DNA of 64,000 bases from Acidimicrobiaceae bacterium (GTDB lineage Bacteria > Actinomycetota > Acidimicrobiia > Acidimicrobiales > Aldehydirespiratoraceae): positions 194,026 to 258,025 of the forward strand of contig VYFQ01000014.1 in assembly GCA_009842325.1 (NCBI GenBank), given 5' to 3'. The translations under genes were made by a program, and so were the position numbers. The notes under the pieces are model-generated. The model was given only the letters and a program-made list of their open reading frames with translations. It had not been told where the DNA came from and made no database searches. Positions 3,247-52,526 of this stretch are shown here, piece after piece. Positions within the stretch are counted from its first letter, which is position 1; each line of letters begins with the position of its first letter.

Positions 3247-4407
3247 CTAGGAGAGCGTCGGCATGCAGAGGCCGTCGAGTTCGCCGACCTGGATGCGGTC
3301 CCGGTTGTCGTAGGTGACCTCGTTGGAGGGGTCGGGCCGCAGCTTGAACTCGCGGAAGCTCATCTCCAGAGCGTCGAAGGCCACCAGGCGGCCCCGCAGC
3401 GAGTCCCCCACTCCCAGGATCAGCTTGATGGCCTCCAGGGCCTGCACGCTGCCGACGATGCCGGGCAGCACGCCCAGCACTCCGGCCTCGGCGCAGCTCG
3501 GCGCCATCTCCGGCGGAGGGGGCTCGGGCAGCATGTCGCGGTAGGTGGGCCCGTTGCGGGGGTCGAACACGGTGACCTGGCCCTCGAAGCGGAAGATCGA
3601 CCCGTGTACCACCGGTATGCCGAGCTTCACTGAGGCGTCGTTGAGCAGGTAGCGGCTCGGGAAGTTGTCGGCCCCGTCGACCACCACGTCGTAGCCGTCG
3701 AGGATCTCCATGACGTTGTCGGCGCCGAGCCGGGCGTCGTAGGTGACGACGTTGACGTCGGGGTTCAGCGCGGTGAGGGTCTTCTTGGCCGAGTCGACCT
3801 TGCGGTCGCCCACCCGGTCGACGTTGTGCAGGACCTGGCGCTGGAGGTTGGACTCGTCGACCACGTCCATGTCGATGATGCCGATGGTGCCCACTCCCGC
3901 GGCCGCGAGGTACAGCGCCGCCGGGGAGCCGAGACCTCCCGCGCCGAGCAGCAGGACCTTGGCGTCGAGCAGCTTGAGCTGCCCGTCCTCGCCCACCTCG
4001 GGCACCAGCAGGTGGCGCTGGTAGCGGTTGCGCTGATCGGGCGACAGGGTGCGGGGCCGCGCCCAGGCCCGGCCCTCGTCCTTCCACTTGTTGAAGCCGC
4101 CGTCCATGGACACCACGTCGGTGTAGCCCATCTGCTCGAGCGTCACCGCCGCGAAGGCGGAGCGCACGCCGCCCGCGCACATGGCCACCAGCGGGGTGGA
4201 CCGGTCGGACACGCGGTTCTCGATGCTCGACTCGAGCTGGCCCCGCGGGATGTGCACGGAGCCGGCGATGGCTCCCTGCTCGTACTCGTCGGGCTCGCGC
4301 ACGTCGAGCAGGGTCCAGCCCTCGCTCAGCAGCTGCTCGCCGCCGGCGGTGTCGACCTCGCGGATCTCGGCCTTGGCCTGCTGCAATAGTTCTCTGAAGC
4401 TCGCCAT
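3247..4407 (-). CDS. Rhodanese-ThiF/MoeB-family adenylyltransferase/sulfurtransferase (MoeZ-like, but with the rhodanese domain N-terminal)
   Basis: N-terminal rhodanese motif LLDVREPDEYEQGAIAGSVHIPRG. ThiF Rossmann motif LLLGAGGLGSPAALYLAAAGVGTIGIIDMDVVDESNLQRQ. Start placed at ATG 4407, because 4414-4437 belongs to the noncoding repeat; alternative start at 4437. Confidence 0.8.
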   Translation of the reverse strand: MASFRELLQQAKAEIREVDTAGGEQLLSEGWTLLDVREPDEYEQGAIAGSVHIPRGQLESSIENRVSDRSTPLVAMCAGGVRSAFAAVTLEQMGYTDVVSMDGGFNKWKDEGRAWARPRTLSPDQRNRYQRHLLVPEVGEDGQLKLLDAKVLLLGAGGLGSPAALYLAAAGVGTIGIIDMDVVDESNLQRQVLHNVDRVGDRKVDSAKKTLTALNPDVNVVTYDARLGADNVMEILDGYDVVVDGADNFPSRYLLNDASVKLGIPVVHGSIFRFEGQVTVFDPRNGPTYRDMLPEPPPPEMAPSCAEAGVLGVLPGIVGSVQALEAIKLILGVGDSLRGRLVAFDALEMSFREFKLRPDPSNEVTYDNRDRIQVGELDGLCMPTLS

Positions 4408-4413
4408 CGGTCG

Positions 4414-4473
4414 TTCGCTCCTGTTCGCTTCGCTCACGGGCCGCTCGGGCCACGGCCTCGCAAGCTCGGCCTC
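4414..4473. repeat. Copy 2 of the ~60 nt intergenic repeat
   Basis: Near-identical to 3134-3195. It lies immediately upstream of the rhodanese-ThiF start. Confidence 0.85.
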
Positions 4474-8818: not shown

Positions 8819-9859
8819 CTAGAGGACACCCTCACGAGCCAAGAGGCGAGTCTTCATGACACTGCCATAGCCCCACTTGCCGACATCCTGGGTCTTTCGG
8901 AATGTCTCATGGACAACGCGGTGGCAGGGAACCAGCAGCGGTACAGGGTTCCGTCTCATCGCTTCGCTCACCGGTCTGTATGCGTTGGGGCGTCCGATCA
9001 CCCGCGCAACATCTTTGTAGGTCCTCACTTCTCCACGAGGAATGCGAGTGGTGGCCAACAGAGCGTCCCTGTGGACCGGTGCGCTCGCTAGCGACGAGAG
9101 ATCGATTGGCACATCAGTGCGCCCTGCCTCTAACGCCGCTTGCACCTTCTTGACCAGCTTCGGATCGCGGTCGGGATCCGGTCCAACTTCCACATCAACG
9201 CCGATTTCATCACGCAGAAGGGCGACGAACCCGTTGGGATCCATGACTCCCCATTTGGATGCGCTCAGACCTGACTCGGGATCGCAGGCGAGGTCTCCAT
9301 CCTGTGCGACCCGCAAGGCTGAGACCCTCCCGCTGTGGTGGGCCACGAAGACGGACCCAAGAGGACTGTCCACCGCGAACCAGGCGTGGACCGGCACATG
9401 AACGCCCGTGCGACTGCCGCGCGAGCCATGCGGCAAGCGCATCGCCTTGTGGGCGCCGGAAGGGTCGGCCCTGGCAGTCTCGTTCCCGGCGGCGTTGAAC
9501 TCTCTCAGTAGGTGCTTGGCTTTGTCCGTCTCCATCGCGTCCACAGCCTCAAGCAGCTTGACTACGCCACCGATTACGATCGCAACATCGTGACGCTCAA
9601 TGCGCTCGTGGTGTGCCCATCGATGGCGCTCTTCTCGAAGTGTTCCCACTAGCTTCCTGATGACGCCGCGATCTGAAGTCGGGAACTGGCCACCGACCTG
9701 TTCCCAACGCTCGTCAATCACTCGCAACAAGTAGCTGGGATCGCCTGTGGAGTCCGCGCCCGCTGAGGTCATCGGCGTGTGACGTTGGACGAAGGGCTTG
9801 AGTCCTCTTGCCAGCAACTGTAAGGCCTCATCCACCCAGGTCCGGTTGCTCACATTCAC
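8819..9859 (-). CDS. Fusion protein: N-terminal Swt1-like HEPN domain plus a complete Ogt/MGMT-type methylated-DNA-protein-cysteine methyltransferase
   Basis: N-terminus has LLRVIDERWEQV...LREERHRWAHH (Rx4H) ...LLEAVDA. C-terminus has IPRGEVRTYKDVARVIGRPNAYRPVSEAMRRNPVPLLVPCHRVV (PCHR active site). The middle region resembles the Ogt N-terminal domain. Confidence 0.65.
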   Translation of the reverse strand: MNVSNRTWVDEALQLLARGLKPFVQRHTPMTSAGADSTGDPSYLLRVIDERWEQVGGQFPTSDRGVIRKLVGTLREERHRWAHHERIERHDVAIVIGGVVKLLEAVDAMETDKAKHLLREFNAAGNETARADPSGAHKAMRLPHGSRGSRTGVHVPVHAWFAVDSPLGSVFVAHHSGRVSALRVAQDGDLACDPESGLSASKWGVMDPNGFVALLRDEIGVDVEVGPDPDRDPKLVKKVQAALEAGRTDVPIDLSSLASAPVHRDALLATTRIPRGEVRTYKDVARVIGRPNAYRPVSEAMRRNPVPLLVPCHRVVHETFRKTQDVGKWGYGSVMKTRLLAREGVL

Positions 9860-12787: not shown

Positions 12788-13699
12788 CTAGCCCGATGCT
12801 GGGGCGGGGAGGTCCTGCTCGACGGTGAGCGTCGGCGCGAACAGGTCCCCGAGTTGTTCAACCCGGTCGAGGACTTCGGAGGCGGTGAACGACAGCGGCT
12901 CGCCGTCGGCCCCGTCGGACACCTCGTCCCAGGTGATGGGCGCGGACACGGTGGGACGGTCCAGGCCCCTCAGCGAGTAGGGGGCGATGGTGGTCTTGAA
13001 GCGGGCGTTCTGGCTCCAGTCGATGAACACCTTCTGTGGCCGCAGGCTGCGCTTCATCACCGACACCACCAGTGCCGGCAGTCGCTTCTCGAGCAGCTGG
13101 GCCACGGCCAGGGCGAAGCCGGCCGCGTGGTCGTGGGAGTGGGGCCGGTTGAGGGGCACGTAGAGCTGCATCCCCTTGCTGCCCGAGGTCTTCGGCCATC
13201 CGGACAGGCCGACCGACTCCAGAACCTCGCAGACATGCAGGGCCACTTGGCAGCACTCGACGATCGTGGCCGGCTTGCCCGGGTCGAGGTCGAACACGAC
13301 CATGGTGGGCGAGTCGAGGTCGCCGCAGCGGGCCATCGGGGCGTGGATCTCCAGCGCGGCCAGGTTGGCCGACCAGGCCAGCGCGGCCACGGAGTCGAGG
13401 CGGCAATATTCGATCGGCCCGCCCCTGTCGCCCGGACCACGGCACGTGGGAACCCAGTCGGGACGGTGCTTCGGGCAGCGCTTCTCGAAGAACGATTCGG
13501 CGGTCACGCCGTCGGGCCAGCGCCGCAGGGTGACACCCCGGTCGCCGACGTGGGGAAGCATCGCCGGCGCGACCCGCACGTAGTAGTCGATCACCTGCGC
13601 TTTGGTGAACCCGGTCAGCGGGTACATGACCTTGTCGAGGTTGCTGACCGACAGCCGGCGCCCATCGATGGTGACGGGCACGCGCTCGGGTGCGCTCAC
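12788..13699 (-). CDS. NHEJ DNA polymerase/primase domain protein (LigD-Pol, stand-alone)
   Basis: VTIDGRRLSVSNLDKVMYP..GFTKAQVIDYY...RWPDGV...FFEKR. GTG start at 13699, downstream of the Ku stop. The longer track ORF overlaps Ku. Confidence 0.8.
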   Translation of the reverse strand: MSAPERVPVTIDGRRLSVSNLDKVMYPLTGFTKAQVIDYYVRVAPAMLPHVGDRGVTLRRWPDGVTAESFFEKRCPKHRPDWVPTCRGPGDRGGPIEYCRLDSVAALAWSANLAALEIHAPMARCGDLDSPTMVVFDLDPGKPATIVECCQVALHVCEVLESVGLSGWPKTSGSKGMQLYVPLNRPHSHDHAAGFALAVAQLLEKRLPALVVSVMKRSLRPQKVFIDWSQNARFKTTIAPYSLRGLDRPTVSAPITWDEVSDGADGEPLSFTASEVLDRVEQLGDLFAPTLTVEQDLPAPASG

Positions 13700-13736
13700 T
13701 GATCCGCCCGAACCGCGACCCGCCCCGCTCGACCTC

Positions 13737-14612
13737 TCAGGCCGACTTGCGGATCTTCGTCGCCGGTTCCTCGGGCTTCGCCTCCGGCTCCGCGGCGGCC
13801 TCGCCCCCGGTGGGGTGGCGCTTGCGGGCCTCCTTGGCCGCGGCGACCGAGGCCTCCAGCGCGGCCATGAGATCGACAACGGTGTCGGACGCCGGTGCGG
13901 CCGGCGCCACCGTGGCCGTGGTGTCGCCGGAGGCCTTGCGCTCGATGAGCTCCAGCACCGCCTCCCGGTAGGAGTCGGTGTAGCGGTCGGGCTCGAATTC
14001 GGCCTCGAGGGCGGCGATGAGCTGGCGGGCCATGGCCGTCTCCCGCTCGTCCACGTCAATGCCGTCCAGCCCTTCGAAGCCGTCGATGTCGTCCGGCGCC
14101 ACCAGCTCGTCGGAGTACACCATGGTCGACAGCATCAGCCGCCCGTCGACGGGACGGACGGCGGCCAGGTACTGCTTCGAGCGCATCACGAAGTGGCAGA
14201 CGGCCACCTTGTCGGCCTCGTCCATGGCCTCGGCCAGCAGCTTGTAGGGCTTGGCCGCGGCCTCGTCGGGAACCAGGTGGTAGGCGCTGTCGTAGAAGAC
14301 GGGATCGATGTCGGCTAGGTCGATGAAGGCGTCGATGTCGATGGTGCGGGCCGCGACCGGGGCCAGCTCCTCCAGCTCGCGGTCGGTGACGGTGACATAG
14401 TCGCCCGACGCCAGCTCGTAGCCCTTGATGATCCGCTCGGGCGGCAACTCGGTGTCGTCGGCCGACGACACCTTCTTGTAGCGCACCCGGGCGCCGGTCT
14501 CGGCGTCGAGCTGGTTGAAGCGCACGTTCTTGCGGCTCACCGCGCTGAAGAGCTGCACGGGAATCGTGACCAGTCCGAAGCTGATCGATCCCTTCCAGAT
14601 CACTCTCGGCAC
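13737..14612 (-). CDS. ku: Ku protein (non-homologous end joining)
   Basis: MPRVIWKGSISFGLVTIPVQLFSA...VRFNQL, with a basic C-terminal tail. Confidence 0.9.
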   Translation of the reverse strand: MPRVIWKGSISFGLVTIPVQLFSAVSRKNVRFNQLDAETGARVRYKKVSSADDTELPPERIIKGYELASGDYVTVTDRELEELAPVAARTIDIDAFIDLADIDPVFYDSAYHLVPDEAAAKPYKLLAEAMDEADKVAVCHFVMRSKQYLAAVRPVDGRLMLSTMVYSDELVAPDDIDGFEGLDGIDVDERETAMARQLIAALEAEFEPDRYTDSYREAVLELIERKASGDTTATVAPAAPASDTVVDLMAALEASVAAAKEARKRHPTGGEAAAEPEAKPEEPATKIRKSA

Positions 14613-14689: not shown

Positions 14690-15544
14690 TTAGGGCGCGA
14701 GCAGGATGCGGGCCACCAGGTCCTGACCGAAGGCGGTGACGATGGCCAGGTACACCAAGCCGGTGGCGGCCATCACCGCCGAGTACTGGCGCTCACGCAG
14801 CGCGGCTCTCGCTACCGCCACCAGCAGCAGTGTCGTGGCGGTGGAGGCCACCCAGAACCAGCCCAGCAGGCCGTTGTAGCCGTCGTCGATGGTGCCGTTG
14901 AGCACCGACACCATGCCCGTGGGCCACAGCATCACGATCGTCTCGGGCACCCAGATCACCGCCGCGGCCCGGATCATCTGCAGTAGCGGCCCTCGGGCCA
15001 GGCCGGGCTGGACCAGGTACCAGTGGCCCAGCAGCATTGCGCTCAGCACCGCCCCGCAGAACAGGGCGCCGACGAGGGTGCGAGCCACCGCCAGCCCGGC
15101 GGGGCCCCCGGCCGCCAACGCGCCCAGCAGGACCGCGATCAGACCGGCCGTCGCTGCGAGCAGATCCAGCACCGGAGGGAACTCGGGCGCAGCGGGATCG
15201 AAGCGGGTCTCGGCCCGGTCGATGCCGGTCATCTCCGCCACCCGGGCCGACCGGCGCGCCACCTGGGCCCGCTGACCGGCCACGCCCGCCGACCGGCGCG
15301 CCACCGAGACTGCTCCCGCGACCAGCCCGGCTAAGGCGAAGACCATCGTGGCCACCTCGCGGCTCCAGGTCGGCTCGGCCAATAGCGCGGTAACCAGAGA
15401 GCCCCCGGCCAAAGCCAGGAACACTCCCCGCATCAGCCATCCGTATCCGAGCCCGACCTCGCGGCGGCGGGTGGTCACCCAAAGGAAGAACCACCCGCCC
15501 GCGGCCCAGCCGACCAGCAGCGTGGCGGCGTCGAGTTCGACCAT
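14690..15544 (-). CDS. Polytopic membrane protein of unknown function
   Basis: 284 aa with multiple hydrophobic helices. No family recognised. Confidence 0.45.
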   Translation of the reverse strand: MVELDAATLLVGWAAGGWFFLWVTTRRREVGLGYGWLMRGVFLALAGGSLVTALLAEPTWSREVATMVFALAGLVAGAVSVARRSAGVAGQRAQVARRSARVAEMTGIDRAETRFDPAAPEFPPVLDLLAATAGLIAVLLGALAAGGPAGLAVARTLVGALFCGAVLSAMLLGHWYLVQPGLARGPLLQMIRAAAVIWVPETIVMLWPTGMVSVLNGTIDDGYNGLLGWFWVASTATTLLLVAVARAALRERQYSAVMAATGLVYLAIVTAFGQDLVARILLAP

Positions 15545-15562: not shown

Positions 15563-16666
15563 TCAGGCGACGACGGCCAAGTTGTGGTCGGCGCGGTTGA
15601 GGGGGTCGGGACCGTCCGGCGAGGCGGCCACGATGTCCTCCAAGCGGGCACCCCACCGGCCGGGCACATAAATCCCCGGCTCCACCGAGAAGGCGTTGCC
15701 CGCCTCCAGCGGCCGGACGTTGCCCTCCACGATGTACGGGTCCTCGTGGGCCTCGGTCCCGATCCCGTGGCCGGTGCGGTGCACGAAGAAGTCTCCGTAT
15801 CCGGCGGCGGCGATGATCGACCGGGCCGCCCGGTCCACATCCTGGGCAGGGGTGCCCACCGCTGCTGCGGCCACGCCGGCCGCCTGCGCTTCGAACAGGA
15901 CGCCGTACAGCTCGACGAACTCCGACGGCGGCTCGCCGGTGTACACGCAGCGGGTGATGTCCGAGCAGTAGCCGACGCCGTCGTCGCCCACCATCGTGCC
16001 GCCGAAGTCACACAGCACGACCTCGCCGGCGCCGATCACCCTAGGTCCGGGTTCATGATGCGGGCTGGCTGCGTTGTCGCCGGCGGCCACGATGGCGAAG
16101 TTCACCCGGTCGTGGCCCTCGGCCACGATCTGGCGGCCCAACTCGGTCGAGACCTCGGCCTCGGTCCGTCCCACCAGCCCGATCTCGCCCCGCTGGAGCC
16201 GGCCCGCGATCCTGTCCACCGCGGCTCCAGCGGCCCGCAGACGCTCGATCTCATCGGCCGTCTTCACTGAGCGGATCGGGGCGGTGACATCCGAGCCACG
16301 CCTCCAGGCCGCGTCCGGCATGACCGTCATCAACTCCACCAAGAACCGGGACCACATGTGGTCCCCGACCGCGGCCACCGTCGCGGCTCCGGCCAGGCCG
16401 GCCACGATGTCCACCGGGTCCTCGGTCTCGTCCCAGGGCCGCATCCCGAAGACATCGGGACGCTCGGCCACCCGGGGAGCCTCCATCCGGGGCACGACCA
16501 GCGTGGCCTCGCCGTCGCAGGGCACCACCAGCATGGTGAGACGCTCCAGCGGCATGGCTTCATAGCCGCAGAAGTACGGCAGGTCGGCCCCCACCGACAG
16601 CAGCAGCACGTCCACGCCCTGCTCAGCCATCAACGCCCGGGCCCTGTCCAGCCGATCGGTGAACAT
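15563..16666 (-). CDS. M24-family Xaa-Pro dipeptidase/aminopeptidase
   Basis: HRTGHGIGTEAHEDPYIV, with the metal ligands DFGG...D...H...E...E. Confidence 0.85.
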   Translation of the reverse strand: MFTDRLDRARALMAEQGVDVLLLSVGADLPYFCGYEAMPLERLTMLVVPCDGEATLVVPRMEAPRVAERPDVFGMRPWDETEDPVDIVAGLAGAATVAAVGDHMWSRFLVELMTVMPDAAWRRGSDVTAPIRSVKTADEIERLRAAGAAVDRIAGRLQRGEIGLVGRTEAEVSTELGRQIVAEGHDRVNFAIVAAGDNAASPHHEPGPRVIGAGEVVLCDFGGTMVGDDGVGYCSDITRCVYTGEPPSEFVELYGVLFEAQAAGVAAAAVGTPAQDVDRAARSIIAAAGYGDFFVHRTGHGIGTEAHEDPYIVEGNVRPLEAGNAFSVEPGIYVPGRWGARLEDIVAASPDGPDPLNRADHNLAVVA

Positions 16667-16675
16667 GGGCGCAGC

Positions 16676-18409
16676 CTAGGTTCGTGCCGGGGCGGCCTCC
16701 ACGGCGGCGTCGGCGGCCTGGCGGGCGTGGTAGCTGGAACGGGTCAGGGGCGAGGCCTCTACATGGCGGATGCCCATCGACTCGCCGATCTCCTTCCATC
16801 GCTCGAACGCCTCCGGCGGCCACCAGCGATCAACCGGAAGATGGCGTGCGCTGGGACGCAGGTACTGGCCGATGGTCACGATTTCGGTTCCGGCTGCATG
16901 CAGGTCCGCCAGGGTCTGGACCACCTCGTCGTGGGTCTCGCCCATGCCCGCGATGATTGACGACTTGGTGGTCAGTCCCTCCGCCTTCGCCCTGGCCAAC
17001 ACCGCCAGGCTGCGGGCATAGCCGGCTGACGGGCGTACCGCTCGCTGGAGCCGGGCAACGGTCTCGATGTTGTGGTTGAGCACGTCGGGACGTGCATCGA
17101 ACACCGTCTGGAGGGCGGCCGCTTCACCACCGAGGTCGCTTATCAGCGTCTCGACACGGGCCGCAGGCAGGCGATGCCGGACCGCGGCCACCGTGTCGGC
17201 CACGACGGTTGCTCCCCCGTCGGCCAGATCATCGCGGGCCACCATGGTCACCACCACGTGCTCGAGGCCCATCCGGACGGCCGCCTCAGCCACCCGCTCC
17301 GGCTCCTCCGAGTCCACCGGACCGGGGCGGCGGGTGTCGACCAGGCAGAAACCGCAGGCCCGGGTGCAGCGCTCGCCGAGAATCATGAAGGTCGCGGTGC
17401 CGTCGTTCCAGCACTCGGAGATGTTGGGGCAGCCGGCCTCCTCGCAGACGGTCACCAGGTCGAGACCACGCAGCGTCGAGCGGACCTCGTGGAACGTCGG
17501 CCCGGTGCTGAGCGGCACCCGCATCCATTCCGGCTTGCGTGACCGCAGCGGCACCGGCTCGTGGCTCTCGCCGTCCAGCCGGGCAGCCTCCAGCCGGCCC
17601 AGCAGGCGCAGCGACACTCCCTCGGCCGCGGCTCCGGCCTCGGGGCTGCCGTCCGTCGCCGTTTCGGCATCCGCCGAGCCGTTCGCCGCGTCCCGGGTGA
17701 ACCGGGCCATGTCCGCAGGAGCCACCCGGTGGGCGACATCGGCCCGGTCGATGCGGCCGTGCGCGCCCCATGTCCCAGCAGCCCGTTGCGCCACGAGGTC
17801 CACGACCTGTTGCATCGACACGCCGATGCCCTCGGCCGCCAACGATGTCACTCCCAGGCCGGTGATCCCGCAGGGCACGATCCGAGCGAACCACTCCAGG
17901 TCGGGATCGACGTTGAGCGCGAAGCCGTGCATGGAGCGGGCCCGCGACAGCCTCACGCCGATGGCGGCAATCTTCCGGGGCCGCAGCCCCTCGGGGTCGA
18001 CCCACACCCCGGTGTGACGCTCGAGACGTCCCGCCTCGAGCCCCAGATCGGCTAGGACGTCGATCAACAGCTGCTCCACGCCGCTCACGTAAGCGGCGGT
18101 GTCCGCCATCCCGCCGCCGCGCCGGCCGGGCACGGTGAGAATCGGATAGCCCACCAGTTGCCCGGGTCCGTGGTAGGTGACCTCGCCGCCCCGGTCGGTC
18201 TCCACCACCGAGCCGCCCAGCGCCTCGACGTCGACCAGCAGGTGCTCGCGCCGGCCCCGGCGGCCCAGGGTCACCACATGGGGATGCTCGAGCAGGAGAA
18301 GGTGGTCGTCGGAGGAGTGGCCGTGAAGGCGGCGTTGGAGTGCCAGGGCATCGTCGTAGGCCACACGGCCGAGCCAGCGGATCCGCAGGACGGGCCGGTC
18401 AGTGGCCAC
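16676..18409 (-). CDS. Fused octanoyltransferase LipB (N-terminal) and lipoyl synthase LipA (C-terminal)
   Basis: N-terminus is LLLLEHPHVVTLGRRG...KIAAIGVR. An Ala/Gly/Glu-rich linker follows. C-terminus has CEEAGCPNISECW and the radical-SAM motif CTRACGFC. There is no stop codon between the two halves. Confidence 0.8.
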   Translation of the reverse strand: MATDRPVLRIRWLGRVAYDDALALQRRLHGHSSDDHLLLLEHPHVVTLGRRGRREHLLVDVEALGGSVVETDRGGEVTYHGPGQLVGYPILTVPGRRGGGMADTAAYVSGVEQLLIDVLADLGLEAGRLERHTGVWVDPEGLRPRKIAAIGVRLSRARSMHGFALNVDPDLEWFARIVPCGITGLGVTSLAAEGIGVSMQQVVDLVAQRAAGTWGAHGRIDRADVAHRVAPADMARFTRDAANGSADAETATDGSPEAGAAAEGVSLRLLGRLEAARLDGESHEPVPLRSRKPEWMRVPLSTGPTFHEVRSTLRGLDLVTVCEEAGCPNISECWNDGTATFMILGERCTRACGFCLVDTRRPGPVDSEEPERVAEAAVRMGLEHVVVTMVARDDLADGGATVVADTVAAVRHRLPAARVETLISDLGGEAAALQTVFDARPDVLNHNIETVARLQRAVRPSAGYARSLAVLARAKAEGLTTKSSIIAGMGETHDEVVQTLADLHAAGTEIVTIGQYLRPSARHLPVDRWWPPEAFERWKEIGESMGIRHVEASPLTRSSYHARQAADAAVEAAPART

Positions 18410-26047: not shown

Positions 26048-26634
26048 AGCAGGTCGGGACGGGCACTCTGGCGGTCACGGGCGACGACGCTGCTGACCGC
26101 CTGCTCAACACCGATCCCCTGGCTCTGCTCTTGGGGATGCTGCTCGACCAGCAGATCCCCCTGGAGTGGGCCTTCATGGGGCCTCATCGCCTGGTCGAGC
26201 GGCTGGGTGCCGAACTGGACGCGGTGGACATCTCCGAGCGGGACCCCGACGAGTTTTCCGCCCTGGTCAGGGCTAAGCCGGCGCTGCACCGGTTTCCGAG
26301 CTCGATGGCCAAACGGATGCAGGCCCTATGCCGGCATGTCGCTGATCACTACGACGGCGACGCCGGGGCGGTCTGGAACGCGGCGGCGAGCGGCGAGGAT
26401 CTCTTCCGGCGATTGCGGGACCTGCCCGGCTACGGCGACGAGAAGGCTCGGATCCTGACCGCCGTCCTCGCCAAGCGCTTCGGCGTCCGTCCCGACGGCT
26501 GGGAGGCGCAGGCCGGAGCCTTCGCCGACGGCGAGCCGCGATCGGTAGCCGACATCGACAGCCCGGAAGCGCTACAACGTGTGCGGGCATGGAAGAAAGA
26601 GCAGAAGGCCCTTGGCAAGAGGAAGGACGAATGA
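26044..26634 (+). CDS. HhH-GPD-type base-excision-repair-like protein
   Basis: The GTG at 26044 overlaps the aceE stop. LLGMLLDQQIPLEWAF...LPGYGDEKARIL. Confidence 0.55.
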   Translation: MKQVGTGTLAVTGDDAADRLLNTDPLALLLGMLLDQQIPLEWAFMGPHRLVERLGAELDAVDISERDPDEFSALVRAKPALHRFPSSMAKRMQALCRHVADHYDGDAGAVWNAAASGEDLFRRLRDLPGYGDEKARILTAVLAKRFGVRPDGWEAQAGAFADGEPRSVADIDSPEALQRVRAWKKEQKALGKRKDE

Positions 26635-27182
26635 GAGTCCGACTCCTGGCGTGCGCTGTGATCGTTGCCCTTACGGTCGCGGCCTGCGGGGCCGATGACG
26701 TCGCGACCAATGCGGAACCAGCTTCCACGGGGACCGACGTCGCGGCTTCCGATGCCCCCGCCAACCCCTCGGGAGATGTGCCCGACCTCGAAATGGTCAG
26801 CGTGTACACGGGGGAGACCGTCAATCTCCAGTCGCTGGTGAGCGGCGAGACGCCGCTGCTGCTCTGGTTCTGGGCGCCTCATTGACCCACCTGCCGGAGA
26901 GAGGCTCCGGCCCTTGAGCAGTTCGCTCAAGACAACACCGGCAAGGTGACGGTCGTGGGGATAGGCGCCCAGGACGACTTCGCCTACGCCGAGCGATTCG
27001 TGTCCCAGACCGGAACCACCTTCCCCATGCTGTGGAGCGACTCCAACGAGAGTTGGCGCCACTTCGATGTCGGTAGGAACTCGAGCGTGCTGCTGCTCGA
27101 CAGCGGTGGCAACCTGGCCGACGACAGCCCCGGCAGCTTCGACGCAGCGAGCCTCAGCGACCAGCTTGCTGCCCTAACCTGA
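26631..27182 (+). CDS. Lipoprotein TlpA/ResA-like thiol:disulfide oxidoreductase with in-frame UGA (candidate selenocysteine, residue 85) in an H-U-P-T-C motif
   Basis: ATGA overlap with the upstream stop. Signal peptide with lipobox VAAC. LLWFWAPH-TGA(26883-26885)-PTCRREAPALEQF...VTVVGIGAQ...TFPMLWSD...VLLLDSGG continues in the same frame. Hairpin lies 7 nt after the TGA. Confidence 0.7.
26893..26911 (+). promoter_or_regulatory. Candidate bacterial SECIS hairpin 1
   Basis: GCCGGAG-AGAGG-CTCCGGC: 7 bp stem, G-containing loop, starting 7 nt 3' of the UGA. Confidence 0.55.
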
Positions 27183-27185
27183 GCG

Positions 27186-28385
27186 ATGAAGATGCCGCTC
27201 TCCACCCGAATTCTCGCAGTGTTCCTCGCCATCGCCCTGCCGGCCGCCGCCTGCGGCAGTGATGCCGACCCGAGTACCGGGGATCAAGGCATCAACGCCA
27301 GCGCCGAGGATCAGGCCGCTCTTGAGCAGGCCCATGCCGAGGCCGACGCGGCTGCGGCTGAGGCCGCCGAAGCCGCCGCCGCAGAGGCAGCGGCCCAGGC
27401 AGAAGCGGAAGCCGCCGCCCAGGCAGCCGCTGAAGCCGAAGCCGCCGCTCAAGCCGAGGCTGCCGCTCAAGCCGCGGCTCAAGCGGAGGCCGAAGCCGCG
27501 GCCGCCAAGGCGGCTGAGGCCGAACTCGCGCTGGCGGCTGCTGAAGCGGAGCCTGAGGGAACTGTGGACCCCGAAGTGGTCGACGAACTCGAGCAGCAGC
27601 TGGCGCAAGCCCAAGCCGAGGCCGAGGCAGCCGAGGCCGAGGCGGCCGCACAGGCAGCCGCCGCCGAGGCAGCCGCACAGGCAGCCGCCGCTGAGGCCGA
27701 AGCAGCCGCGGAAGCCGCAATCGCCGAGGCCGAAGCCCGAGCCATAGCCGCCGAGGCCGAGGCCCTAGCCGAAGCCGCGGAAGCCGAGGCAGCGGCCCAA
27801 ACTGCAGCCGCCGAGGCCGCAGCCCAAGCGGCAGCCGAGGCCACCACGACAGCCGCACCAACGACAACCGCCGCGCCCACAACCACCGCAGCCCCGACGA
27901 CAACTGCCGCGCCCACAACCACCGCAGCCCCGACCACGACAGCCGCACCGACGACCACCGCCGCGCCGGTCATCGAGATCGAGGTGCCGGCTCAGGACAT
28001 GATCGAAGTGCGCACGGGAGCGGCCGTCAACCTTCGCGACTTCGCGGACGGATCGACACCCCTGCTGCTCTGGTTCTGGGCCCCGCATTGACCGATCTGT
28101 CGGCGAGAGGCCTCGCCGGTCGGGCAGTTCGCCCGAGACAACGAAGGTAAAGTCATCGTCATAGGCGTGGGCGGCTCGGACACCCGCGCCGAGGCCGAGA
28201 GTTTTGTGGCCTCCGCCGGCGGTCCGGACAACATGCTCTGGGGCAGCTCCTTCGAGGCGTGGAACCACTATCGCGCCGGCAACCCCAACCTGATACTGCT
28301 CGACGCGACCGGTGCAACACAGATCGAGAAGGTCAGCCAATTCAACAAGAACCGCCTCCAGGACGCACTGGACAGCCTCGGCTAG
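27186..28385 (+). CDS. Second lipoprotein TlpA-like oxidoreductase paralog with in-frame UGA (candidate Sec, residue 302) in H-U-P-I-C, preceded by a long low-complexity linker
   Basis: Lipobox AAAC. Roughly 200 aa Ala/Glu/Gln-rich stretch, then 7 x TTTAAP. LLWFWAPH-TGA(28089-28091)-PICRREASPVGQF...VIVIGVGG...LILLDATG continues in frame to 28385. Confidence 0.7.
27843..27968. repeat. 18 bp tandem repeat x 7 encoding (TTTAAP)7
   Basis: The direct translation gives seven consecutive TTTAAP units. The copies differ at synonymous positions. Confidence 0.85.
28101..28118 (+). promoter_or_regulatory. Candidate bacterial SECIS hairpin 2
   Basis: CGGCGAG-AGGC-CTCGCCG: 7 bp stem starting 9 nt 3' of the UGA. 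The stem sequence differs from hairpin 1 but pairing is preserved. Confidence 0.55.
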
Positions 28386-52007: not shown

Positions 52008-52526
52008 ATGACCACTGTCCTCGATCCCACCTCGGAGCAGGCCCCGGCAGCGCGGGAGCGGGCCACCCGGCCCGAGTCGCTGGCCGGGCTGACCGTCGGG
52101 CTGCTCGATATCTCCAAGCCCCGCGGCAACGTGTTCCTCGATCGTGTCTCGGAACGCCTCACCGGACTGGGCGCGACGGTCAACCGCTACACCAAGCCCA
52201 CATTCACCAAGCCCGCTCCGGTTGACCTGCGACACGAGATCGCCACCACCTGCGACGCGGTCATCGAGGCGCTCGCCGATTGAGGCTCCTGCGTGTCGTG
52301 CAGTGTGCACGACATCAGCGACATCGAGCGGCGCGGCGTCCCCGGCGTGTTCGTCTCGACCGTCCACTTCGCTTCGGCCGTCGAGGCACAAGCCGAGTCG
52401 CTCGGCTTCGACGCAGCCGCGGTGCTCACCCGCCACCCCATCCAGGACCGCACCGACGACGAGATGGCGGCCATTGCCGACGCCGCCTTCGACGAACTGG
52501 TCCAAGCCCTGGTCGGCCCGTCCTAG
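52008..52526 (+). CDS. UGSC-motif protein with in-frame UGA (candidate selenocysteine, residue 92)
   Basis: AAGGAGG Shine-Dalgarno 7 nt before ATG 52008. ...VIEALAD-TGA(52281-52283)-GSCVSCSVHDISDIERRGVPGVFV... continues in frame to 52526. Hairpin lies 11 nt after the TGA. Confidence 0.65.
52295..52313 (+). promoter_or_regulatory. Candidate bacterial SECIS hairpin 3
   Basis: GTCGTGCA-GTG-TGCACGAC: 8 bp stem (or 7 bp with a 5-nt loop), G in the loop. Confidence 0.5.

Follow-up and report, generated by a model that had tools for sequence, protein, structure and literature searches.

Reviews of prokaryotic selenoproteomes list predicted families with a UxxC motif (U standing for selenocysteine, Sec), including a 'Prx-like thiol:disulfide oxidoreductase' (PF00578) and the UGSC family. 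We describe here two neighbouring redoxin lipoprotein genes, A and B in this order, which lie as tandem paralogs in a sponge-associated actinobacterium (Acidimicrobiaceae bacterium), within a stretch of 64,000 nucleotides of contig VYFQ01000014.1 that was analysed as a whole and is referred to as the window. Each gene carries one in-frame TGA, placed right after the identical peptide LLWFWAPH and forming the motif WFWAPH-TGA-P-x-C. Judging from the alignments presented below, the active-site Cys of both proteins is almost certainly replaced by Sec read from this codon, and the pair very probably represents tandem lipid-anchored thiol-disulfide oxidoreductases of the DsbE/DsbF type with Sec as the N-terminal active-site residue (H-U-P-x-C).

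Gene A occupied positions 26631-27182 of the forward strand, its ATG overlapping the TGA stop of the upstream HhH-GPD gene (ATGA), and its predicted Sec codon was located at 26883-26885. Gene B, also on the forward strand, spanned 27186-28385 and coded for a lipoprotein precursor followed by a stalk and a redoxin domain, with the predicted Sec codon at 28089-28091. Past the TGA both genes read P-(T/I)-C-R-R-E-A, and a stop was reached 98 codons later in A (27180-27182) and 97 codons later in B, where the frame continued as PICRREASPVGQF and ended with TAG at 28383-28385; the open reading frame (ORF) annotated at 28167-28385 is the same frame. The original prediction had this gene starting 3 nucleotides after the preceding stop and staying open through the TGA that follows LLWFWAPH up to 28385, ORF 28167-28385 included, and all of its coordinates were correct, from the ATG at 27186 onwards. 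According to Pfam matches of the window genes, the pair is flanked by aceE and the HhH-GPD gene on one side and by pstSCAB-phoU on the other.

Profile searches were run with the TGA read as Cys. Under these conditions, gene A scored above the cutoffs of PF08534 Redoxin (52.7 bits, cutoff 26.6), PF00578 AhpC-TSA (46.2 bits, cutoff 26) and PF13905 Thioredoxin_8 (35.7 bits, cutoff 27), and it also matched Pfam Thioredoxin. The catalytic domain of gene B, a thioredoxin-fold domain at 27969-28382, was 48% identical to that of gene A (E 4e-45). The nearest solved structures were Mycobacterium tuberculosis DsbF (3IOS, E 1e-13) and DsbE/MPT53 (1LU4, E 3e-12), and in these alignments the TGA fell on the first Cys of W-C-P-x-C, U-P-T-C of A and U-P-I-C of B being aligned to C-P-T-C and C-P-F-C of 3IOS and 1LU4. 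Pro occupied the cis-Pro column of the fold in 81 of the 105 members of the family, among them gene B, which keeps the Asn-Pro motif. Matches to DsbE, ResA, TlpA and StoA in NCBIfam were found below threshold only; the equivalog level of ResA, CcmG or TlpA was not reached (27-38 bits against cutoffs of 123-359) and the genes lacked a ccm or res context. Given scores so far under the equivalog cutoffs, A and B are not orthologs of ResA, CcmG or TlpA. Neither protein matched any selenoprotein-specific NCBIfam model, including the HUIPC-motif family NF047660. By these matches, A and B are exported lipoprotein redoxins of the actinobacterial DsbE/DsbF/TlpA-like kind, with U-x-x-C as the predicted active site if TGA encodes Sec.

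Conservation of the TGA was followed in 28 loci obtained from a scan of species-representative genomes and in 80 loci from a metagenome scan; the search patterns of the latter favoured Sec forms, so the share of TGA in the metagenome set does not represent an unbiased frequency. The TGA was kept in both paralogs in nine loci (L001-L009) from Acidimicrobiia metagenome-assembled genomes (MAGs) and closed 'Ca. Aldehydirespirator' chromosomes, all with the common synteny aceE - HhH-GPD - A - B - pstS, and in gene A of two further loci (L010 and L012). More distant homologs (L011 and L013-L028) presented TGC or TGT at the catalytic codon. TGA occupied the same codon in about 75 of the 80 metagenome loci, and the family as a whole comprised 98 sequences with TGA vs. 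23 with TGC or TGT. Downstream of the TGA, neither indels nor stops occurred in the 98 codons of A (12 orthologs) or in the 97 codons of B (10 orthologs), and pairwise NG86 ratios of nonsynonymous to synonymous substitution (dN/dS) between the window and its orthologs were 0.18-0.37 for A and 0.29-0.51 for B (dS 0.15-0.54). Thus, the purifying selection expected for a translated frame was found, these values not being near 1, and the codon itself was TGA in close relatives and TGC or TGT in more distant homologs. A neighbour-joining tree of the family required a minimum of six Sec/Cys switches, the Cys form L011 standing beside the Sec form L012. In addition, two TGA-bearing paralogs were present within 0.8-1.6 kb of each other in more distant lineages (L056, L057, L059, L066, L098, and L108), and therefore tandem Sec-form pairs recur in the family.

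A further gene of the window pointed to Sec decoding. The gene at 52008-52526 of the forward strand matched the UGSC family (NF041046, 147.1 bits, cutoff 125) and carried a TGA (52281-52283) at the U of the UGSC motif, followed by a 10-bp hairpin (52293-52315) with the loop GUG at nucleotides 23-25 counted from the U of UGA. As far as the family match and the hairpin indicate, this is a third selenoprotein gene and provides independent evidence of Sec decoding in the same 64 kb. Sites with coding-type GC content at third codon positions (GC3) on both sides of a TGA were then limited to the two redoxin sites, this one, and three gene-junction candidates (27180, and 46169 and 15565 on the reverse strand). 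The TGAs at 27180 and 46169 were discarded as ordinary junctions between adjacent genes. The one at 15563-15565 (reverse strand), at the end of an M24 peptidase gene, was followed by coding-like in-frame sequence (…AACLAAMVELDAATLLVGW…), and it probably just marks the boundary to the adjoining gene at 14690-15544, which has no Pfam match. Sec forms of the MoeB/ThiF-rhodanese and O6-methylguanine methyltransferase families exist in other bacteria; the scan flagged no in-frame TGA in the window members of these families, a MoeB/ThiF-rhodanese gene (3247-4437, reverse strand) and a gene fusing an O6-methylguanine methyltransferase domain to a Swt1-like HEPN domain (8819-9859, reverse strand). TGA ended 23 of the 46 crude gene calls of the window, which rules out genome-wide reassignment of this codon. 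As regards the lineage, selA-selB operons were found in other Acidimicrobiia MAGs (JABIQD01, JAFMSL01, and PBGE01/TARA, all from other lineages, among the matches listed), and Actinomarina genomes carry the full Sec machinery. Slaby et al. reported SelA and SelB in most sponge-symbiont bins, their Table S4 listing SelA, SelB and SelD for the Acidimicrobiia bin76.

Two adjacent hairpins followed each TGA, the first (H1) at nucleotides ~11-31 and the second (H2) at nucleotides 31/32-48/49 from the U of UGA. All lie on the forward strand. In gene A, per-sequence folding with RNAfold placed H1 (GCCGGAG-AGAGG-CUCCGGC) at 26893-26911, with arms at 26893-26899 and 26905-26911, and H2 (CUUGAGC-AGUUC-GCUCAAG) was located at 26913-26931. 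In gene B, H1 (UCGGCGAG-AGGC-CUCGCCGG) was found at 28100-28119 and H2 (UCGGGC-AGUUC-GCCCGA) at 28120-28136, the latter being a candidate SelB-binding element. Both H2 elements, delineated by folding and covariation, contain G-U in the loop. H1 of gene B is the hairpin of the original prediction (CGGCGAG/CTCGCCG, 28101-28118); its arms were recovered at 28101-28107 and 28112-28118, with RNAfold widening the stem by one pair, and the different but fully paired stem that had been pointed out in the paralog (GCCGGAG/CTCCGGC) was also seen. H2 had gone unnoticed. The arms of gene A contained codons that are rare in the window: AGA accounts for 2.3% of its Arg codons, CTT for 3.5% of its Leu codons, CAA for 11% of its Gln codons and GCT, which occurs twice in the arms, for 8% of its Ala codons; CTT, GCT and CAA lie within H2.

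The two hairpins behaved differently across the 81 unique Sec-form sequences. H2 was fixed in position (nucleotides 32-37 pairing with 43-48 from the U of UGA), its six pairs being formed in 73-81 of the 81, and it was 100% paired in 22 close sequences, in which two compensatory pairs appeared (U-A/C-G and A-U/G-C). Its loop was AGUUC in 60 sequences, AGUUU in 13, GGUUC in 6 and AGUUG in 2, with G-U invariant. The differences between LEQFAQ in A and VGQFAR in B (Glu/Gly and Gln/Arg) correspond exactly to the compensating positions of the H2 stem; therefore, amino acid changes follow RNA pairing here. H1 was present in all 81 sequences, with 48 different 5' arms, five registers and no conserved loop sequence. 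Its registers shift (i+j = 40, 41, 43, 44, and 45), so column-wise covariation was unusable and sequences were folded individually. The mean minimum free energy was considerably lower in Sec than in Cys forms, both for H1 (-12.1 vs. -5.2 kcal/mol, p 4e-11) and for H2 (-10.1 vs. -4.1 kcal/mol, p 7e-13), and z-scores of each sequence against synonymous recodings of itself were -1.7 for H1 and -2.5 for H2 in Sec forms vs. about 0 in Cys forms. The closest Cys form (L011) kept an H1-like stem and had lost H2. When H1 is folded, 7-12 single-stranded nucleotides separate UGA from H2 in 65 of the 77 sequences; the most frequent value is 9 nucleotides, the same distance that precedes the hairpin of the UGSC gene. 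Searches against Rfam (gathering threshold and E ≤ 10) gave no match to a selenocysteine insertion sequence (SECIS), as expected from the poor representation of bacterial SECIS elements in that database. Taken together, a TGA conserved at a Cys-aligned codon, a frame free of indels and stops, dN/dS below 1 and an RNA structure belonging to the Sec forms lent strong support to the proposal that the TGA is recoded and is not a sign of decay.

A G-U in the loop is a known requirement from SelB-SECIS work in Escherichia coli and Moorella. On this basis H2 appears the likelier SelB-binding hairpin and H1 a structured spacer. The paired stem originally proposed as the SECIS-like element thus stands as a conserved structure, but its five registers and the lack of G-U in its loop leave the adjacent H2 as the better candidate for binding SelB. 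The opposite assignment, in which Sec is inserted with H1 as the SelB-binding SECIS and H2 is an accessory or a by-product of the conserved peptide EQFA(Q/R), is possible but doubtful. The H1 loop lies at nucleotides 18-25, which is also where the UGSC gene has its G23-U24 loop, H1 loops begin with G or AG, and the presence of this hairpin in every Sec-form sequence with 48 arm sequences amounts to strong structural covariation. However, the Arg codon CGG is the reverse complement of the Pro codon CCG, so that part of the H1 pairing comes at no cost, the shifting registers come without any conserved loop sequence, and L011, the nearest Cys form, retains the H1-like stem and not H2; conversely, H2 stands out by a loop with invariant G-U, a position that does not shift, its rare codons and a recoding z-score stronger than that of H1. 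A more elaborate scheme can be put forward only tentatively: a composite bacterial SECIS, in which H1, free in sequence and register, would act as a spacer at the mRNA entrance and place the G-U loop hairpin H2 effectively ~9-11 nucleotides from UGA, which is the canonical spacing, coupled to an RNA-dictated peptide and to a selenol relay between A and B. Under this scheme the needs of the RNA may dictate the sequence EAPxVEQFA(Q/R) in helix alpha-1, and the changes from Glu to Gly and from Gln to Arg between A and B may be RNA-driven compensatory substitutions.

Several observations weigh against the reading of A and B as Sec-containing DsbE/DsbF-type oxidoreductases. Gene B scored just below its Pfam cutoff (25.8 bits vs. 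26) and evolves fairly fast (omega up to 0.5). Gene A lacks the cis-Pro of the thioredoxin fold, which is replaced by Asn-Ser (~27096-27101, GRNSSVLLLD) as in 23 other family members. H1 loops are devoid of G-U, and the G-U of H2, at nucleotides 39-40, lies 16 nucleotides farther from UGA than in the UGSC gene of the window; in E. coli fdhF it is found at nucleotides 23-24, so that H2 is again 16 nucleotides farther out. With respect to the decoding machinery, ARAGORN detected no tRNA-Sec in the window or in any of the fetched loci, and selA, selB and selD were absent from the window by tblastn (queries: SelA, SelB and SelD of E. coli, and SelA and SelB of Acidimicrobiaceae) and, over ~45 of its genes, by Pfam. 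In the 20-kb flanks of related loci the only tblastn match was at L018, a Cys-form locus, in which selB lies divergently upstream of the redoxin gene (1-2707). The window also lacks ccdA, the pair sitting between aceE/HhH-GPD and pstSCAB-phoU. Finally, in Table S4 of Slaby et al. the Acidimicrobiia bin134, of similar GC content and 90% complete, has SelD but no SelA or SelB COG.

With no Sec machinery found in the window, there is some room for UGA being read as one of the standard amino acids Cys, Trp and Gly, for instance by near-cognate suppression boosted by the hairpins; stable structures 3' of a stop codon are in general able to promote its read-through. We consider this improbable. TGA is the commonest ordinary stop of the window, which speaks against genome-wide reassignment, and the position concerned is the nucleophilic Cys of CxxC, a classic site of Sec/Cys exchange at which at least six switches were counted; moreover, a member of the curated UGSC selenoprotein family relies on this device elsewhere in the window, and SelA and SelB are widespread in Acidimicrobiia. 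Decoding as Trp was specifically ruled out, the codon being aligned with Cys and not with the preceding Trp of DsbE and DsbF. That the TGAs are real stops, with A and B as decaying pseudogenes or truncated N-terminal products and the downstream frames as chance ORFs, is highly improbable: at a GC content of 69% long ORFs often arise spuriously, public gene calls do end at the TGA and the absence of machinery genes from the window counts here too, but the same nonsense codon recurs at the same catalytic position in two paralogs, ~10 genomes and ~75 metagenome loci, the indel-free downstream region (dN/dS below 1) is homologous throughout to the C-terminal half of Cys redoxins, and products ending at the TGA would be left without the second Cys and with only a minor part of the fold.

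Regarding the redox partner, ccdA, coding for a DsbD-type membrane electron carrier, adjoined the redoxin gene in ~24 homologous loci, Sec and Cys forms alike. It was found directly after the redoxin gene in L013-L016, L018, L021, L022, L049, L052, L053, L062, L064, L071 and others. By analogy, this adjacency points to a CcdA-fed reducing pathway on the external side of the membrane. For A and B as Sec-containing oxidoreductases we propose the following mechanism. SelB carrying Sec-tRNA(Sec) would be recruited by the RNA structure 3' of the UGA, so that the ribosome inserts Sec without terminating; H2 would be the element bound by SelB, and the folded H1 a structured spacer that leaves ~9 single-stranded nucleotides between UGA and H2. 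Both proteins would be exported by the Sec translocon and then lipidated, A being held near the membrane on a linker of ~30 residues and B borne on a helical Ala/Glu/Gln stalk of ~180 residues plus a flexible (TTTAAP)7 linker. By analogy with the ccdA-linked relatives, a membrane electron carrier of the CcdA type would probably keep the selenol/thiol pair reduced, and the targets of this pair in the cell envelope would be disulfides or oxidised thiols. In such an arrangement a selenol relay of two tiers could run from the membrane to the wall zone of the sponge symbiont, formed by A, with its short tether and no cis-Pro, and by B, with its long stalk.

The anchoring part of this scheme was analysed in the N-terminal regions, with lipoboxes assigned by eye. 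Gene A contains the lipobox MRVRLLACAVIVALTVAA-C19 (VAAC, Cys19). In gene B the signal peptide and lipobox (…LPAAA-C23) cover 27186-27254 (forward strand, as are the features below), with MKMPLSTRILAVFLAIALPAAA-C23 at 27252-27254; this lipobox, kept in orthologs, is relaxed, with Ala at position -3. It is followed by a region of 180 residues composed of 87% Ala, Glu and Gln (27303-27842) and by seven TTTAAP units (27843-27968) that lead to the catalytic domain. The description of ~200 residues of Ala/Glu/Gln repeats and (TTTAAP)7 ahead of that domain was therefore close in length and exact in the number of units. AlphaFold2, run on residues 1-301 of gene B as a single sequence, predicted two long helices (residues 40-121 and 129-223, pLDDT 83-94) and a disordered Thr/Ala/Pro repeat. 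The PEGTVDPE break between both helices occurred in some orthologs only. The length of the Ala/Glu/Gln region varied across orthologs, always in frame, and so did the distance from the lipid-anchor Cys to the Sec (259 to 354 residues). Relatives displayed other low-complexity tethers; in L011 (9302-11182), the closest Cys form, from a genome of 50% GC, a long acidic tether rich in Asp, Glu and Thr replaces the Ala/Glu/Gln stalk, the active-site region of the second paralog of this locus being masked by N in the record. This indicated that the long and variable spacer between anchor and catalytic domain of gene B is real. The stalk may be an extended rod of ~25-30 nm or a helical hairpin of ~13 nm with the two helices folded back; the model fits either. 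The suggestion that the redox domain is held far from the membrane is reasonable in view of the lipobox, the two long predicted helices and the disordered linker. Parallels are offered by Ala-rich helical spacers, for example TolA domain II and designed A(EAAAK)n, and by Thr/Pro-rich actinobacterial linkers. The stalk of gene B resembles TolA domain II and A(EAAAK)n in composition and in its predicted long helices, placed between an anchor and a globular domain.

Annotation of these genes in public records was affected by the TGA. In a record of which one part is identical to the window (VXTL01000027.1, 407 kb, GCA_009837475.1), gene A was split into calls of 84 and 75 residues, and the start of gene B was left uncalled on the forward strand in two public records (L116 and L119). 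Public protein calls, exemplified by P0005 and P0008, ended at WFWAPH, as in P0005, or started just past the site. A separate case was a protein of 259 residues (P0012) with an S-layer homology (SLH, PF00395) N-terminal part and a C-terminus that enters the same redoxin N-terminal strand (…KPLLLWFLSPL), which may be a wall-anchored variant of the redoxin family or result from a frameshift in the call. Outside the locus, a single ORF of 577 residues on the reverse strand of the window (16676-18409) appears to be a LipB-LipA fusion: it joins the catalytic domain of a lipoyl(octanoyl) transferase/ligase to a radical-SAM lipoyl synthase, and it adjoins the E2, E3 and E1 genes of a 2-oxoacid dehydrogenase. 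Also on the reverse strand, adjacent genes for Ku and a LigD primase-polymerase domain, a non-homologous end-joining pair, were present at 12788-14612.

Standard gene callers split or truncate genes of this type, and surface redox enzymes consequently drop out of annotations in a widely distributed group of Acidimicrobiia from marine habitats and sponges. The family is large, with ~75 TGA-bearing loci from one metagenome scan, and its ~80 natural variants of a coding-region recoding signal can help to establish the rules of actinobacterial SECIS elements and to train selenoprotein predictors. A and B also illustrate how an intracoding RNA structure constrains codon choice and even amino acid sequence, and they point to selenium-dependent thiol chemistry on the external side of the membrane in sponge symbionts. 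The current understanding of Sec decoding is unchanged by them; the two-hairpin architecture with a floating H1, the RNA-imposed peptide motif, the tandem pair with short tether and long stalk, and the missing cis-Pro of gene A are the features that merit a specialist's interest.

Among the systems with which the locus can be compared, M. tuberculosis DsbF and DsbE are the closest in sequence among proteins of solved structure. Their WFWAP-x-C-P-x-C-x-x-EAP region and the whole domain align end to end with the window proteins, but they have Trp-Cys where the latter have His-Sec, they possess the cis-Pro that is replaced by Asn-Ser in gene A and, unlike gene B, they are devoid of a stalk. DsbF and DsbE are extracytoplasmic actinobacterial proteins; they have been reported to be oxidants, whereas the ccdA neighbourhood of the A/B family hints at a reducing pathway instead. 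The CcdA-dependent proteins ResA, TlpA and CcmG (DsbE) gave weak but consistent NCBIfam and PDB matches to both genes; the window contains neither cytochrome c maturation genes nor ccdA. With regard to decoding, the SECIS of E. coli fdhF shares with the locus an intracoding hairpin immediately after the UGA, G-U in a loop (here that of H2) and stems kept by compensatory changes; it differs in consisting of one hairpin with G-U at nucleotides 23-24, as compared with two tandem hairpins and G-U at 39-40 in A and B. The catalogued UxxC redoxin selenoproteins, with which the comparison was made by description and not by exemplar sequences, have Sec first in UxxC and were predicted, as A and B were, on the strength of a TGA within the frame, of homologs carrying Cys and of a hairpin that follows; gene A matches PF00578 and PF13905, the same Pfam models as these families. 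The descriptions compared mention neither a HUPxC motif nor Sec paralogs in tandem, anchoring as a lipoprotein or a long stalk. UxxC selenoproteins of the TlpA-like kind are thus already catalogued, and A and B represent a large, poorly annotated clade of this known kind and no new mechanism.

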